This document shows, piece by piece, positions 3,467 through 9,611 of a stretch of DNA of 64,000 bases (within the stretch, counting starts at the first letter, position 1; the number at the start of each line of letters is the position of its first letter). Below the pieces are notes generated by a model. That model did no database searches. It worked only from the letters and a program-made list of their open reading frames with translations, and was not told where the DNA came from. The position numbers and the translations under genes were made by a program. Origin of the DNA: an uncultured Gemmatimonadales bacterium (lineage in GTDB: Bacteria > Gemmatimonadota > Gemmatimonadetes > Gemmatimonadales > Gemmatimonadaceae); contig CAWKNZ010000001.1 of NCBI GenBank assembly GCA_963851265.1, forward strand, positions 187,920 to 251,919. The letters run 5' to 3'.

Positions 3467-4885
3467 TCAGGGCCGCGTGTCGCGCGCATCGCGCGGCGTA
3501 GTGCCGCGCGCCAGCCGGCTCATGAAGACGGCCGCGCGCGCCGCGCTCATCCGGAGCGACGGCAGGTAGATGAGTTCATGCGGGCTGTGCGCGCCCGCCC
3601 CGTCCACCCCCAGCCCGTCGATGCCGGGCATGAGCGGCGCCACGAACGACACGTCCCCCGCCCCGCGGCTCTCGGGCGGCGAGGTCGTCACGGCGGGGTA
3701 GCCCAGCGCGGAGCTCGCGCCGGAGTAGAGCGCGAGCAGGCGCGCGTTGGCCGGTGTCGCGGTCATCGCGGGGTACGCGTCCTCGAACGTGAAGCGCGCC
3801 TCGGTGCCGGCGAGCGAGTGCCCCGCGATCTGCCGCATGCGCGTGCGTGCCGAATCCTTCTGCCCCTCCGACAGAAACCGCAAGTCTCCTGTCGCCTCGA
3901 ACGCGGGCGGCACGATGTTGCTCTTGCCGTCGGCCAGCAGCGTTCCCGCGGCCGAATCGGCGGCGACATGGGCCCCGCCGGCGAGGAGTCCCACGTTGAG
4001 CGTGAGTCCCGGCTCCCCGGACAGCGTGCGCCGCACGTCATCCAGGACCCGGGCACCTTCGTACACGGCCCCGTAGCCCACGCCACTCGAGAAGATCCCC
4101 GACGAGTGTGCCTGGCGCCCGCTCACGTGTAGCTGCCACGAACTCGCCCCGCGCCGTCCGATCGCCGCGCGGGTCGCGGTCCCGCCCTCGAACGCGAGGG
4201 CGACGTCGCTCGACCGCGCGGCATCGAGCAGCGCCGCCCGCGCCTCGGCGAGAGGCCGCCCCGGTGCCTCCTCGTCGCCGGTCAGCACGACGGTCACCCG
4301 CATCCCGTCCAGCTCCCCGGCGTCGGCCAGGGCGTGCAGGGCGAGCAGGATGGCGACGTCTCCGCCCTTGATGTCGCTCGTCCCCGCCCCCCGCGCGACG
4401 GTGTCCTCTCGCACCCAGTGCTGCCCCTCGCCCTCGAACACGGTGTCGAGGTGTCCGATGAGCAGCAACCGTGGTCCGCGCGTGCCGTCGCGTTCGGCCA
4501 CCAGATGGCCGCCGCGGTGCATCGTCGCGGGCACTTCTACCCACCGGGTCCGAAACCCGAGCGCCTGCAGCTCGCCCGCGAACAGCGTACCCACCCGCCG
4601 CACGCCCTGCGTGTTGAGCGTCCCGCTCGGGATGTCGACGGCCCGCTGCAGGAGCGCCACGTGTGCGTCGTACCTCCGGTCGACCGCGTCGCGAATCGCC
4701 CGTTCCGCCGCACTCAACTCCGCTCCGCCGCACCAGCCCGCCACCACGCCCGCCGCGTGCCCCGCCGCTTCCTCCCGCACCGCGACGGGTGTGGCACGTG
4801 CCACACTCGCCGTTGTGGGCGCGGAACGGCATGCCGCGAACGCGAGGCACGCGAGAATGGTGGCCCGTGAAATCCCAGGCAACAT
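3467..4885 (-). CDS. M20 metallopeptidase (carboxypeptidase G2-like) lipoprotein
   Basis: GHLDTV, DIKGG, GDEE, G.QAHS and GAHS..E motifs, with lipobox AFAAC. Start uncertain. Confidence 0.88.
   Translation of the reverse strand: MLPGISRATILACLAFAACRSAPTTASVARATPVAVREEAAGHAAGVVAGWCGGAELSAAERAIRDAVDRRYDAHVALLQRAVDIPSGTLNTQGVRRVGTLFAGELQALGFRTRWVEVPATMHRGGHLVAERDGTRGPRLLLIGHLDTVFEGEGQHWVREDTVARGAGTSDIKGGDVAILLALHALADAGELDGMRVTVVLTGDEEAPGRPLAEARAALLDAARSSDVALAFEGGTATRAAIGRRGASSWQLHVSGRQAHSSGIFSSGVGYGAVYEGARVLDDVRRTLSGEPGLTLNVGLLAGGAHVAADSAAGTLLADGKSNIVPPAFEATGDLRFLSEGQKDSARTRMRQIAGHSLAGTEARFTFEDAYPAMTATPANARLLALYSGASSALGYPAVTTSPPESRGAGDVSFVAPLMPGIDGLGVDGAGAHSPHELIYLPSLRMSAARAAVFMSRLARGTTPRDARDTRP
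4789..4806. promoter_or_regulatory. putative non-canonical parS site (perfect 18-bp palindrome GTGTGGCACGTGCCACAC)
   Basis: Same TGT-nn-CACGTG-nn-ACA architecture as canonical parS (TGTTTCACGTGAAACA). An identical copy is at 7795-7812. About 3 kb upstream of parA. Confidence 0.7.
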
Positions 4886-5018
4886 CGGAACGCAGCGGTG
4901 GGCGCGCATGCGGCGCCTGCGCATGCGAGGAACGTGCACGAACCACCCGCACACGGCTCCGCACCGGCACGCCGCCGGCGAGCCGGACCTCACACGGCGA
5001 CCGCCGGTACATTCTGGC

Positions 5019-6956
5019 ATGCGACGCACCGAAGCCCAGTACGACGTGCTCGTGATCGGCGGCGGTCACGCGGGCGTGGAAGCCGCAGTCGCCGCAAGCC
5101 GGTGCGGCGCCCGCACGGCCCTCGTCACGAGCGCGATCGAGACCATCGGCCAGATGTCCTGCAACCCGGCCATCGGCGGTGTGGCCAAGGGTACGGTCGT
5201 GCGCGAGGTCGACGCGCTCGGCGGCGTGATGGGGCGCGCGACCGATCGCGCAACCGTCCAGTTCCGCATGCTCAACCGCGGGAAGGGCGCCGCGGTGTGG
5301 TCGCCCCGCGCCCAGTGCGACCGCGGCCTCTACCGGCGCGCCGTGCGCCACGAACTCGAACGCCACGCCGGCCTCGACGTCGTCCAGGGCACCGTCGCAC
5401 GGCTCCTGCTCGCTGACCACGCCACCGTGGTCGGTCTCGAGACGCTCGAAGGGCGCCGGTTGGGCGCCGCCGCCGTCGTCATCACCACGGGCACCTTCCT
5501 CCGCGGTCGCCTCCACATCGGCACCACGGTCGCGATCTCCGGCGGACGTGCCGGCGACCCTGCCGCCGTCCACCTCGCCGAACAGCTCGACATACTCGGC
5601 ATCACGGTCGCCCGCTTCAAGACGGGCACGCCGCCGCGCATCGACGGACGCTCGGTCGACTACAGCCGACTCGCCCGGCAGGACAGCGAACTCCACGACG
5701 CCGACCCCACCCGCCCCGGCTATCGCTGGAGCCATTTCGACGATGCGGCGCCCACGCTGCCGCAGCTGCCGTGCTGGGGCACGTACCTCGAAGAGCCCGG
5801 AAAGGCGCTCATCGCAGCCCACCTGCACGAGAGCGCGATGTACGGCGGCGCGATCGGCGCGCGAGGCCCGCGCTACTGCCCGTCGGTCGAGGACAAGATC
5901 GTCCGGTTTCCCGACGCCGCGCGCCACCAGCTCTTCCTCGAACCCGAAGGGCTCGACACGTCCGAGCTGTACGTGAACGGCCTCTCGACGTCGCTCCCCG
6001 CCGCCGTTCAGCTCGACATCCTGCACACGGTCGCGGGCCTGGAACACGCGCGCATGACGCGCGCGGGATACGCCATCGAGTACGACTACTGCCCGCCGAC
6101 CCAACTCGACGCCACCCTCCGCGTCCGCGCGGTCGAGGGACTGTGGCTCGCCGGACAGATTAACGGCACCACGGGCTACGAGGAAGCCGCGGGTCAGGGC
6201 GTCGTTGCCGGCCTCAACGCCGCCCTCTGGACCCAGCGTCGCCCCCCGGTCACGATCGGGCGCGAGTCGGCCTACCTCGGCGTGCTCGTCGACGATTTGG
6301 TCACCCGCGGGGTGGATGAGCCGTACCGGCTCTTCACCTCGCGATCCGAACTCCGTCTGACCATCCGCCAGGACAACGCCCTCCGTCGGCTCGCCCCCGT
6401 CGCCGCCTCCCTCGGCATGTACTCCGACGCCGAAGCGGTGATCGTCGAACGCCGCGCCCGCGACGAGGCCGACGCGATCGCCCTCGCCGAACGGACGAGC
6501 ATCACCCCCGAGCGCGCCGCCCCGATCATCGCCGCCGCAGCGGCCGCCGGCGCCGCGGTCGGCGGGGTACCCCCGCACGCAGTCCGCGCCGACGAACTCG
6601 TCCGCCGCCCCGGCGTCGCGCTCGCTCCCCTCCTCGCCGCGTGCGACGTCGGCGCCGACCTCCACCCCGAGGCGGTCCACTCCGCCGAACTCGAGATCAA
6701 GTACAGCACGTACATGGCCCGCGAACGCGACCAGGCTGCCCGCATCGCGCGCCTGCGCGAGGTCCCGCTCGACGCCGCCCTCCCCTACGCGGAGTTTCGC
6801 TCGCTCTCGACCGAGGCCCGCCAGAAACTCGGTGCCCTCCGCCCGGCCACCCTCGCACAGGCCGGTCGCGTTCCCGGCGTTTCCGCCAGCGACCTGCAGA
6901 ACCTCCTCGTCGAGGCAGCCCGGTGGCGACGCGACGCACTCGCCAGCGCCGAGTAG
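5019..6956 (+). CDS. mnmG: tRNA uridine-5-carboxymethylaminomethyl(34) synthesis enzyme MnmG (GidA)
   Basis: GGGHAG FAD motif, MSCNPAIGG, GPRYCPS, AGQINGTTGYEEAA and EPYRLFTSR. Confidence 0.97.
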   Translation: MRRTEAQYDVLVIGGGHAGVEAAVAASRCGARTALVTSAIETIGQMSCNPAIGGVAKGTVVREVDALGGVMGRATDRATVQFRMLNRGKGAAVWSPRAQCDRGLYRRAVRHELERHAGLDVVQGTVARLLLADHATVVGLETLEGRRLGAAAVVITTGTFLRGRLHIGTTVAISGGRAGDPAAVHLAEQLDILGITVARFKTGTPPRIDGRSVDYSRLARQDSELHDADPTRPGYRWSHFDDAAPTLPQLPCWGTYLEEPGKALIAAHLHESAMYGGAIGARGPRYCPSVEDKIVRFPDAARHQLFLEPEGLDTSELYVNGLSTSLPAAVQLDILHTVAGLEHARMTRAGYAIEYDYCPPTQLDATLRVRAVEGLWLAGQINGTTGYEEAAGQGVVAGLNAALWTQRRPPVTIGRESAYLGVLVDDLVTRGVDEPYRLFTSRSELRLTIRQDNALRRLAPVAASLGMYSDAEAVIVERRARDEADAIALAERTSITPERAAPIIAAAAAAGAAVGGVPPHAVRADELVRRPGVALAPLLAACDVGADLHPEAVHSAELEIKYSTYMARERDQAARIARLREVPLDAALPYAEFRSLSTEARQKLGALRPATLAQAGRVPGVSASDLQNLLVEAARWRRDALASAE

Positions 6957-6992
6957 GCCGGTCCGCACCCCCACATTCTCACCTGCCCGCCC

Positions 6993-7772
6993 ATGCCGTC
7001 CGCCCGCCCGCGCCGCACCCTGTCCCTCGCTCGCGCCCTCGCCGTCAGGACCATCGCCGTCGGGGCCATCGCCCTGTCACTCGGCGCGCCGTCCCGCGCC
7101 CGCGCGCAGACGCCGACCGGCGTGGAAACGTTCAACCCCGGCGCGGCCATCACCGTGACCGGCACAGGTGAGGACCAGATCGCCCCCGACCGCGCCCGCG
7201 TGTCACTCGGCGTGGTCACACAGGCGGCCACGGCGGCGGCGGCCGCGCAACAAAACGCGCGACTGCAACAGAGCGTCCTCGATGCCGTCCGCGCCCAGGG
7301 CATTCCAGCCGAACAGATCTCGACCAGCGGTTACAACGTCAGCCCCACCACCGAGTACAACCAGCAGACGCAGCGCTCGCGCGTCACCGGCTACTCGGTG
7401 CAGAACACCGTGACCGTTGAGCTGCGCCGCATCGACCAGATCGGCCCCGTGCTCGACGCCGTGCTCGCGAAGGGAGCCAACACCGTCTCGTCGCTGGAAC
7501 TCTACTCGTCGCAGGCCGAAGCCTCGCGACGCCGCGCACTCGCCAAGGCCGTGGAACGTGCCCGTGCCGACGCCGAAGCCATTGCTGCAGCCGCCGGCGG
7601 GCGACTCGGCCTGCTGCTCGACCTGAGTTCCGCGCCCTCGTTCGGTCCTCCCCGCGCCTTCCCCATGGCCATGGCCCGCGTCGCCACGGCGCCAGCCACC
7701 CCCATCAGTGAGGGCCTCGAGACCAACTCCGCGAGCATCACCGCGCGCTGGCAGTTCGTGCCCCTCCGCTGA
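6993..7772 (+). CDS. SIMPL-domain (DUF541) secreted protein
   Basis: Signal peptide, ITVTGTG...APDRA.V.LGV, GY.V.N.V.V and A...A..RA..DAEAIA patterns. Confidence 0.9.
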   Translation: MPSARPRRTLSLARALAVRTIAVGAIALSLGAPSRARAQTPTGVETFNPGAAITVTGTGEDQIAPDRARVSLGVVTQAATAAAAAQQNARLQQSVLDAVRAQGIPAEQISTSGYNVSPTTEYNQQTQRSRVTGYSVQNTVTVELRRIDQIGPVLDAVLAKGANTVSSLELYSSQAEASRRRALAKAVERARADAEAIAAAAGGRLGLLLDLSSAPSFGPPRAFPMAMARVATAPATPISEGLETNSASITARWQFVPLR

Positions 7773-7794
7773 CCAACGTCGGCGCTGCGATCGT

Positions 7795-7812
7795 GTGTGG
7801 CACGTGCCACAC
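7795..7812. promoter_or_regulatory. putative non-canonical parS site (second copy of GTGTGGCACGTGCCACAC)
   Basis: Perfect palindrome in the intergenic region about 95 bp upstream of parA. Identical to 4789-4806. Confidence 0.72.
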
Positions 7813-7905
7813 CCGCCCGCGCCCCGCATATCTTCCGCCTCCCGGTCCGCCCTCCCGGCTCCCCGCCCGCCGCTCGTCATCCTCCCGCGCTCTTCTGCTC
7901 CCGCC

Positions 7906-8724
7906 GTGACCCGCGTTCTCGCCATCGCCAATCAGAAAGGCGGCGTCGGTAAGACCACCTCCGCCGTGAACCTCGCGGCGAGTCTCGCGGTCGCGGAGCA
8001 GCGTACGCTTCTCGTCGACGCCGACCCGCAGGGCAACGCGACGAGCGGCATCGGCCTCGAGCGCGACGCGATCGGCGCGTCGTTGTACGACGTCCTTGCC
8101 GGCGAGCGTACCCTCGACGAGTCGGTGCACCGCGGCGTGCTCTTCCCGCACCTCGACGTGCTCGCTGCCACCCCGGACCTCGCCGGCGCGGAAGTCGAGT
8201 TGGTCGCTCGCGAGCGGCGCGTGCTCGCCATGCGTGACGCGCTCGAGCCGGCCCGCGGCCGCTACGACTACGTCCTCATCGACTGCCCGCCCTCGCTCGG
8301 CCTCCTCACGGTCAACATGCTGGCGGCGGCCGACGCGGTGCTCATCCCGCTCCAGTGCGAGTACTACGCGCTCGAAGGGCTGTCCCAACTGCTCGATACG
8401 GTGCGGCGGGTTCAGCAGGGCACCAACCCCAACCTCGCCGTGGACGGCGTGCTGCTCACCATGTACGACGCCCGCCTCAACCTCTCGCGCCAGGTCGCGG
8501 CCGACGCGCGCGAGTACTTCGGCCCGCAGATCTTCCGCACGGTCATTCCGCGCAACGTGCGGTTGGCGGAGGCGCCGAGCTTCGGAAAGCCGATCGTCCT
8601 GTATGACGTGACGTCGGTCGGCGCCCAGGCGTACATGGCCGTCGCGCAGGAGATCATCGAACGCGAGCAGGCGCGCGGCGCGCCGGCCGACGCTGCCGTA
8701 GCGGAAACGGCGGAGGCGGTCTGA
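7906..8724 (+). CDS. parA: chromosome partitioning ATPase ParA/Soj
   Basis: NQKGGVGKTT deviant Walker A, DADPQGN, DCPPSLG, QCEYYALEG and RNVRLAEAPSFG. GTG start at 7906. Confidence 0.96.
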   Translation: MTRVLAIANQKGGVGKTTSAVNLAASLAVAEQRTLLVDADPQGNATSGIGLERDAIGASLYDVLAGERTLDESVHRGVLFPHLDVLAATPDLAGAEVELVARERRVLAMRDALEPARGRYDYVLIDCPPSLGLLTVNMLAAADAVLIPLQCEYYALEGLSQLLDTVRRVQQGTNPNLAVDGVLLTMYDARLNLSRQVAADAREYFGPQIFRTVIPRNVRLAEAPSFGKPIVLYDVTSVGAQAYMAVAQEIIEREQARGAPADAAVAETAEAV

Positions 8725-9611
8725 TGCCCCCGGCCCCCCCACGGCGGCTCGGACGCGGCCTCGAGGCGCTACTCGCGTCACGCACGGCGACGGAACCCAC
8801 CCCGGAGGAGCGGAGCGCGCTGCGCAACATCCCGCTCGCCGAGATCCGGCCGAACCCGTACCAGCCACGGCAGTCGTTCCGGCCGGAAGAACTCGCAGAG
8901 CTCGAAGCGAGTCTGCGGACGTCGGGACTCCTGCAGCCGGTGACGGTGCGTCCTGCGGCGGAGGGGAGCGGGTACGAGCTCGTCGCCGGCGAGCGGCGTC
9001 TGCGCGCGGCCACCAACATCGGCTGGACCGAGATTCCGGCCGTCGTGAAGCCGATCGACGACCGGACGCTGCTCACCCTCGCCCTCGTCGAGAACCTGCA
9101 GCGCGCCGACCTCGACGCGCTCGAGGAGGCCGAGGGCTATCAACGTCTGCTCGACGAGTTCGGCCTGACGCAACAGCAGGTGGCCGAGGTCGTCGGAAAG
9201 GACCGCTCGACCGTGGCGAGCACGCTGCGCCTGCTCGCGCTCCCCGCTTCAGTACGCCGGATGGTGCAGGAACGGGATCTCACCGCGGGACACGCGCGCG
9301 CCCTCCTCGCGCTCGGTGACGAACGGCCGATGGCCGATCTCGCGCGTGAGGCGGTGACCAACGGGTGGAGCGTGCGCGAGGTCGAGCGTCGGGTGCGCGC
9401 CCTGCTCGAACGCCCACCCCGCCCAACCGCGCCCGTGGCCGACGCGCGCCCGGCCGAAGTGCGGCGCACCGAGGACCACCTCCGCCGTCACTTTGCCACC
9501 GACGTTGCGATCAAGCTCACGGGTCAGGAGAAGGGGGAGATCCGCATCGCCTTCTACTCGGCGGACGACTTCGAGCGGCTGCTCACGACGCTCGGCACCC
9601 GCCCCGAGTGA
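8724..9611 (+). CDS. parB: chromosome partitioning protein ParB/Spo0J
   Basis: LGRGLEALL ParA-binding N-terminus, NPYQPR, GERRLRA CTPase motif, ENLQR and an HTH. Overlaps the parA stop (TGATG). Confidence 0.96.
   Translation: MPPAPPRRLGRGLEALLASRTATEPTPEERSALRNIPLAEIRPNPYQPRQSFRPEELAELEASLRTSGLLQPVTVRPAAEGSGYELVAGERRLRAATNIGWTEIPAVVKPIDDRTLLTLALVENLQRADLDALEEAEGYQRLLDEFGLTQQQVAEVVGKDRSTVASTLRLLALPASVRRMVQERDLTAGHARALLALGDERPMADLAREAVTNGWSVREVERRVRALLERPPRPTAPVADARPAEVRRTEDHLRRHFATDVAIKLTGQEKGEIRIAFYSADDFERLLTTLGTRPE

Follow-up and report, generated by a model that had tools for sequence, protein, structure and literature searches.

A 64,000-nucleotide stretch of an uncultured Gemmatimonadales bacterium (assembly GCA_963851265.1, contig CAWKNZ010000001.1, positions 187,920 to 251,919 of the forward strand), henceforth referred to as the window, contains a parA-parB gene pair accompanied by two identical palindromes, which are very probably the functional parS sites of this chromosome. 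In ParABS systems, ParB loads at parS, clamps with cytidine triphosphate (CTP), spreads and drives ParA-dependent movement. By most of the features tested the locus resembles a chromosomal ParABS system, but it fails the canonical parS consensus and is hence a variant. As judged from sequence comparison, the overall explanation that we hold with good confidence is that the palindromes serve as parS for the adjacent ParB, with protein and site having drifted together stepwise. Site positions are numbered 1–16 along the palindrome and ParB residues follow Caulobacter numbering.

The exact 16-mer TGTGGCACGTGCCACA was found at window positions 4790–4805 and 7796–7811, and both copies extend to 18-bp palindromes at 4789–4806 (candidate variant parS site 1) and 7795–7812 (candidate site 2), with no strand assigned. 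These are the two identical perfect palindromes described in an earlier note on this DNA, which had correctly placed one in the linker of an M20 peptidase gene and the other about 95 bp before parA (94 bp as measured from the end of site 2 to the GTG at 7906). Site 1 lies 213 bp 5' of mnmG, and site 2 occupies the slot that holds canonical parS in relatives. The two copies were the only matches to the 16-mer in the window at up to three mismatches, and canonical parS had no match in the 64-kb window at the same tolerance; the note had likewise found no canonical copy in the window. Across the assembly (4.6 Mb in 12 contigs, 94% complete), the exact 16-mer occurs twice, both times beside mnmG-parA-parB and less than 4 kb from parB, and canonical TGTTTCACGTGAAACA has no match at up to two mismatches; the random scatter that the earlier note named as a refutation was not seen in this genome. 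A fourth-order Markov model of the whole genome predicted 0.0006 strand hits for the exact word against the 4 observed (two palindromic loci). Two matches at the three-mismatch setting were reached in 5 of 100 shuffles, a weak test taken alone. A 2-mismatch site, CGTGCCACGTGCCACA, lies 1.6 kb to the left of the window at G000:C1:186276 (G000 being this genome), apparently in another lipoprotein-like linker, and is a possible weak third parS; a similar degenerate site was seen in G153 at L364:5249, and three more 2-mismatch matches sit on other contigs of the assembly.

The arrangement is conserved within the genus. A parB match was obtained in four of the five genus genomes (G152, 78% complete, has none), and all four carry Ser178 together with the exact word 86–110 bp before parA; for G153, the site falls together with the beginning of parA on a contig of their own, L365. 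A second copy is present 130–230 bp before mnmG in G000, G151 and G154. In the window this copy reads VARAT within the N-terminal linker of the minus-strand M20 peptidase, whose family matches start only at residue 48 or beyond; in G151 and G154 it is intergenic and the adjoining gene differs, so that what is conserved in site 1 is the DNA site itself, independent of M20 coding. With 3–8 loose matches in each genus genome and no scatter, a 16-bp palindromic site near parAB, in few copies, is common to this genome and its genus relatives. Elsewhere in the phylum, the same slot before parA mostly holds canonical parS; 90 of 151 Gemmatimonadota genomes match TGTNNCACGTGNNACA, and most of the matches listed are canonical. 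Phylum-wide use of the exact word was rejected, since 8 of the 151 genomes matched it at up to one mismatch compared to 16 for the reversed control, and none of the seven other matching genomes has its match near its own parB. Tallies over the 151 genomes, and the samples by phylum, class and family given below, include genomes flagged as unpublished, on which the 234- and 274-locus counts do not rest.

The ParB recognition helix GKDRSTVASTLRLL (9195–9236, plus strand) was aligned to GKSRSHVANTMRLL of C. crescentus ParB (6t1f), placing Ser166 of the present protein (codon AGC, 9219–9221) on the Asn at position 178, in agreement with the earlier claim that Ser replaces the usual Asn; Arg161 stands at R173. 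Sites were then scored up to 600 bp before parA in 274 distinct genomic parAB loci, after removal of duplicates, of loci in which parA or parB was not matched, of contigs from metagenomes and of two loci whose genomes are unpublished. Among the 27 loci lacking Asn178, 23 had G at position 4 throughout (all-G4), none had T at that position (T4), and four were without a site, one being a cut-off G153 contig and three having degenerate TGTG-type words under a looser pattern. The 247 Asn178 loci comprised 161 all-T4, 28 mixed and 4 all-G4 loci and 54 without a site. GG/CC on both arms was present in 20 of the 23 non-Asn loci that have a site and in none of the 193 such Asn loci; without the 13 loci picked by motif, the figures are 9 of 10 and 0 of 193. 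Within Gemmatimonadota the variant is a feature of the genus and does not extend across the phylum, as 135 of 139 Gemmatimonadota loci keep Asn178. In a tree of ParA and ParB from 234 loci, constructed with the recognition helix masked, the Ser loci form one clade inside Gemmatimonadota (support 1.0) and the Thr/Ala loci one clade inside Acidobacteriota (support 0.996). Two Asn-bearing members are nested in the Thr clade, L372 with a canonical site and L305 with a hybrid site.

The second clade was also reached from the DNA word itself. When GTDB genomes were scanned for the word without mismatches, at least 119 loci were obtained, 39 of them with only about 300 bases of flank. At least 13 have the word 58–220 bp upstream of a nearby parA, and at least 12 of these are titled Pyrinomonadaceae, Pyrinomonadales, Chloracidobacterium or Acidobacteria; one other groups with these. 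Thr178 was found in all eight parA-linked loci with parB visible among the matches listed. In L156, left uncounted, the word falls within a divergent gene resembling parB that encodes Arg at the 178 position, and the locus has no parA. Motif-blind sampling of Acidobacteriota by phylum, class and family showed that canonical sites go with Asn178 and that TGTGG-type sites (TGTGGCACGTGCCACA, TGTGGAACGTTCCACA, TGTGGTACGTACCACA) go with Thr178, while Ala178 accompanies TGTGA-type sites in two motif-picked Acidobacteriota genomes. The ParBs of G179 (L208) and G178 (L209) have Ala178, and their words before parA are now TGTGAAACGTTTCACA and TGTGAATCGATTCACA, both of the exact TGTGA-N6-TCACA form. In two Pyrinomonadaceae, dnaA is 47 and 28 kb away. 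The Pyrinomonadaceae loci have a GC content of about 50%, which rules out GC pressure as the shared cause of the GG word.

Published contacts place residue 178 at the protein-DNA interface. N178 contacts parS and is common to ParB and Noc, the ParB and Noc sites share TTT at positions 3–5, and the G at position 2 is recognised by R173 (PMC7383237). In H. pylori, Arg159 and Asn164, five residues on, are among the specific contacts (PMC11229316). Because of the N178 and Asn164 contacts, together with the covariation, we infer that residue 178 reads site position 4 or 5. The canonical B. cenocepacia ParB lost binding with every symmetric change apart from those at 1-16 and the 5-12 transition (PMC5450999), and a standard ParB would therefore probably not read the present site.

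In the proposed mechanism, one recognition helix of a ParB dimer would dock on each arm of the palindrome; by analogy with known ParABS systems, ParB would then close as a CTP-dependent clamp, spread and engage ParA, so that the replicated region is moved apart. The simplest path would run from the canonical state, through Thr174 with hybrid or G4 sites, to the loss of Asn178 with GG fixed. As a first step, Thr174 with Asn178 kept would allow the T-to-G change at position 4, giving hybrid or TGTG[CT] sites. As a second, Asn178 would give way to a small residue (Ser in the present protein, and Thr or Ala in those of Pyrinomonadaceae); beyond this point T4 arms are no longer seen, and GG/CC would have become fixed on both arms. 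That the N178S change itself causes the GG preference is a view towards which the covariation tips us only slightly.

Several observations weigh against this stepwise account or limit its reach. Loss of Asn178 is not needed for the change of T4 to G, since Asn-bearing ParBs with Thr174 have G4 sites: Gemmatimonadota genomes with Asn178 and Thr174 gave 4 all-G4, 5 mixed and 2 all-T4 loci and 5 without a site, compared to 0, 4, 85 and 12, respectively, for Asn178 with Ser174. Similar data were obtained from the 48 of 80 metagenome loci scorable for residue 174 versus site, with 9 G4, 2 mixed, 1 T4 and 4 site-less loci for Thr174, 0 G4, 1 mixed, 25 T4 and 5 site-less loci for Ser174, and one Ala174 locus with no site; the metagenome scan found no Ser178 locus with parA and added nothing on the Ser clade. 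Thr174 predicts the site less well in Acidobacteriota (13 all-T4, 12 mixed, 1 without a site). G at position 5 on both arms also occurs with Asn178 kept, in TGTTGCACGTGCAACA-type sites, and hybrid sites with Asn kept carry single GG arms. The order of the steps is tentative because the closest sister pair, L362 and L363, is canonical, the G4 intermediates L359–L361 form the next clade, and the support for this branching is 0.68. Furthermore, the 274 loci are kin and their counts overstate the evidence: the non-Asn loci go back to two independent origins, perhaps with one reversal, and do not amount to 27 separate events, and internal support for the possible reversal is weak (0.6–0.7).

The genomic setting contributes further points of this kind. 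In this genome, dnaA shares a contig with parB at a distance of 185 kb, or about 4% of the assembly, and the distance is 127 kb in G151 and 181 kb in G154; GC skew did not locate the origin, and no DnaA-box cluster was found. Both copies lie beside parAB, as the clustering test of the earlier note required, and origin proximity was moderate in these three genomes; the locus is compatible with an origin region without proving one. In some Pyrinomonadaceae, matches to the parS skeleton are scattered genome-wide (81 in G177, 58 in G180, 24 in G179 and 11 in G178, with one in G181), an atypical parS layout, and among the matches listed nearly all are the GG word. The co-evolved, lineage-specific ParB-parS pair put forward in the earlier note accordingly stands in part. 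A variant parS with its own ParB is indicated by position, by the lack of a canonical site, by conservation in the genus and by recurrence with Thr in Pyrinomonadaceae; the Asn-to-Ser change is not the sole switch, given the Thr174 loci that combine Asn with G4, and the pair is not confined to one lineage. A more far-reaching proposal is that re-coding of the primary-chromosome centromere occurred two or more times, in two phyla, and led to an identical word through a readout code linking residues 174/178 to positions 4/5, that the pair does not cross-react with canonical parS, and that the Pyrinomonadaceae change was perhaps driven by conflict with parS-carrying dispersed repeats. Taken as a whole, this proposal is tentative and rather doubtful. 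A chase between host and repeats of this type might be reflected in G179, which has about 24 scattered GG words and about 35 copies of the newer word now found before parA.

The serious remaining rival accepts the sites as parS and denies that residue 178 is a specificity switch. ParB would simply have become tolerant, by a change at residue 174 or at some other position, the site would have drifted, Ser/Thr178 would be a passenger or a lost contact, and canonical parS would still be bound equally. The G4 sites with Asn kept and the existence of only two origins speak for this possibility, as does a 2026 preprint whose abstract reports an additional influence of the N-terminal domain on parS specificity (PMC13371061). 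Drift under a tolerant ParB does not, however, readily account for an identical word in two phyla coupled to change at the same invariant residue, for the lack of a T4 arm in all 23 non-Asn loci that have a site, or for sites that are perfect palindromes and not degenerate, and the Pyrinomonadaceae base composition excludes GC pressure as a common cause. On balance, this rival is possible but not favoured.

The remaining alternatives are far weaker. The CRP box consensus is TGTGA-N6-TCACA, with a free spacer and occurrence at many promoters, and the palindrome could be regarded as an operator of a CRP/FNR-type or other regulator for mnmG and parAB. The word differs from that consensus by one base per arm, both copies stand before gene starts, four exact TGTGA-N6-TCACA boxes occur elsewhere in the genome, and L208 and L209 have such words before parA. 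An operator is nevertheless highly unlikely, as the CACGTG core is present in every genus copy while the four CRP-like boxes have no common spacer, TGTGG-N6-CCACA is confined to these two places in the genome, a graded series in the same slot connects the word to canonical parS, and the genome would be left with an intact ParB and no parS. It is just as improbable that the copies are remnants of dispersed repeats or chance palindromes, with the real parS in an unassembled region. The incomplete assembly and the central position of the same word in dispersed repeats of G177 lend this some weight; against it stand the Markov expectation, the lack of scatter in any genus genome, and a position conserved across the genus with differing flanks. 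Horizontal transfer of parB or the site from Pyrinomonadaceae, which would reduce two origins to one and could explain the shared 16-mer, is largely refuted by the tree nesting each clade in its own phylum, by ParB identities of about 70% to Asn-bearing sister genera versus 39–44% to the Thr clade, and by the differing residue (Ser versus Thr), and is the least credible of all.

Comparison with known systems places the locus, read as a variant parS with its cognate ParB, closest to chromosomal ParABS of C. crescentus and B. subtilis (parS TGTTNCACGTGAAACA). The mnmG-parA-parB context, the 16-bp palindrome with its TGT/CACGTG/ACA skeleton, the CTP-binding motifs, R173 and the G201 slot are shared, and two sites are also listed for H. 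neptunium and B. cenocepacia chromosome I in Table 1 of PMC7022226. The differences are that both arms have G at positions 4 and 5 and that Ser replaces N178, such that the TGTTNCACGTGAAACA consensus is not matched. The same source calls parS highly conserved, and no G at position 4 was present in the primary-chromosome consensus sequences of its Table 1 that were examined. Noc and its Noc-binding site (NBS) provide a natural change in ParB-family DNA specificity through a few helix residues, but Noc is a paralogue with a new job, in which positions 2 and 7 changed via residues 173, 179, 184 and 201 with N178 kept (PMC7383237), whereas here the primary ParB, positions 4 and 5, and residues 174 and 178 are implicated. 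Identity of the present protein with Noc was rejected, as the Noc model scored below its cut-off (232 versus 315 bits), and a Noc-type signature (Q173, K179, K184, R201 and a second paralogue) was likewise rejected, with R173 in 234 of 234 loci, the G201 slot in 231, and one full-length ParB in this genome. The Pseudomonas parS variant TGTTCCACGTGGAACA is similarly fixed across a clade on the chromosome, but its change is tolerated by canonical ParB while other internal symmetric changes abolished binding (PMC5450999). Burkholderiales secondary-chromosome and plasmid parS sites are also 16-bp palindromes with a central CG and private ParB specificity (PMC5450999), although these families are plasmid-type and the present locus is a single chromosomal parAB beside mnmG. 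The 16-mer or its 14-mer core was found in no paper among the 20 best-ranked full-text matches (supplements lay outside the search), and a full-text search, whose scope excluded supplements and most subscription papers, found no study of parS in Gemmatimonadota or Acidobacteriota.

Chromosomal parS has been described as nearly invariant across bacteria, and the best-studied change in specificity, that of Noc, was accompanied by a new role. In the present case, it is apparently the functional centromere of a primary chromosome that has been altered, on two occasions and to an identical word, and intermediate forms survive. This would make testable how a multi-site interface shifts without loss of function and would offer an example of joint change in a DNA site and the protein that reads it. 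Consensus-based parS searches would miss real sites of this type, and the system may yield a further orthogonal ParB/parS pair for locus labelling.

The genes of the locus are arranged in the order M20 peptidase, mnmG, SIMPL, parA and parB, the first on the minus strand and the others on the plus strand, with the parA-parB pair near mnmG and a Walker-A ATPase as ParA, as expected of chromosomal ParABS. The M20 peptidase (3467–4885; PF01546, PF07687) is a probable lipoprotein with an inferred ATG start at 4885, and its linker contains site 1. The mnmG (gidA) gene, a usual neighbour of chromosomal parAB, spans 5019–6956 (TIGR00136, 703.6 bits, above cut-off). A SIMPL/DUF541 protein gene (6993–7772; PF04402, E 2e-50) stands in the mnmG-parA interval that is commonly occupied by rsmG (gidB). 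The parA gene (7906–8724; Pfam AAA_31, E 4e-61) has an inferred GTG start at 7906, and its stop overlaps the parB start as TGATG. The parB gene (8724–9611) encodes 295 residues with Pfam ParB_N, HTH_ParB and ParB_C matches and TIGR00180 above cut-off. The motifs LGRGL (8748), GERRLRA (8988) and ENLQRAD (9090) are intact, together with the helix-turn-helix and the C-terminal dimerisation domain; GERRLRA and ENLQRAD correspond to the CTP-binding motifs GxxRxxA and ENLQRE-like as defined in PMC11229316. ParB is the sole full-length match to itself in the assembly, with one partial N-terminal match on C9, and its closest named homologues are labelled Gemmatirosa sp. (92%) and, for P0004, which also has Ser178, Gemmatimonadetes bacterium T265 (89%); the organism is accordingly placed in Gemmatimonadaceae near Gemmatirosa. 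A structure predicted from the single sequence had a low predicted local distance difference test score (52) and was set aside. Of the best 120 ParB homologues, 49 have Ser178; it is accompanied by Thr174 in 33 of these and by Ser174 in the other 16, which are the closest. The Gemmatimonadaceae ParBs P0059, P0066, P0049, P0062 and P0079 have Gln or Ser at 178, lie outside the main Ser block, and could serve as extra independent tests.

Additional site arrangements were observed in relatives. The TGTTGCACGTGCAACA-type sites (L026, L028, L030, L032, L036–L038 and L492) come from an entire family of the order plus a single additional genome. In many Asn-bearing Pyrinomonadaceae (L303–L328; helix DR[ST]F[IV]TNY) the sites are asymmetric, combining a canonical arm with a G4 arm, and two such sites often stand together in opposite orientation. 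In G177:C1 (L459–L473, L047 and others), the 81 skeleton matches are spread chromosome-wide, and 49 of the first 50 listed are the exact GG word; their surroundings are AT-rich and lack long open frames, and many of the copies are central in dispersed repeats of about 300 bp with 83–89% identity. G179 has 37 matches of the newer word form, most of them scattered, beside 24 of the older skeleton, and in G178 the newer word was found before parA only. Immediately before parA, L210 (G177:C1, about 3393.0–3393.3 kb) carries a six-site tandem array with a period of about 61 bp, and L207 has six alternating sites.

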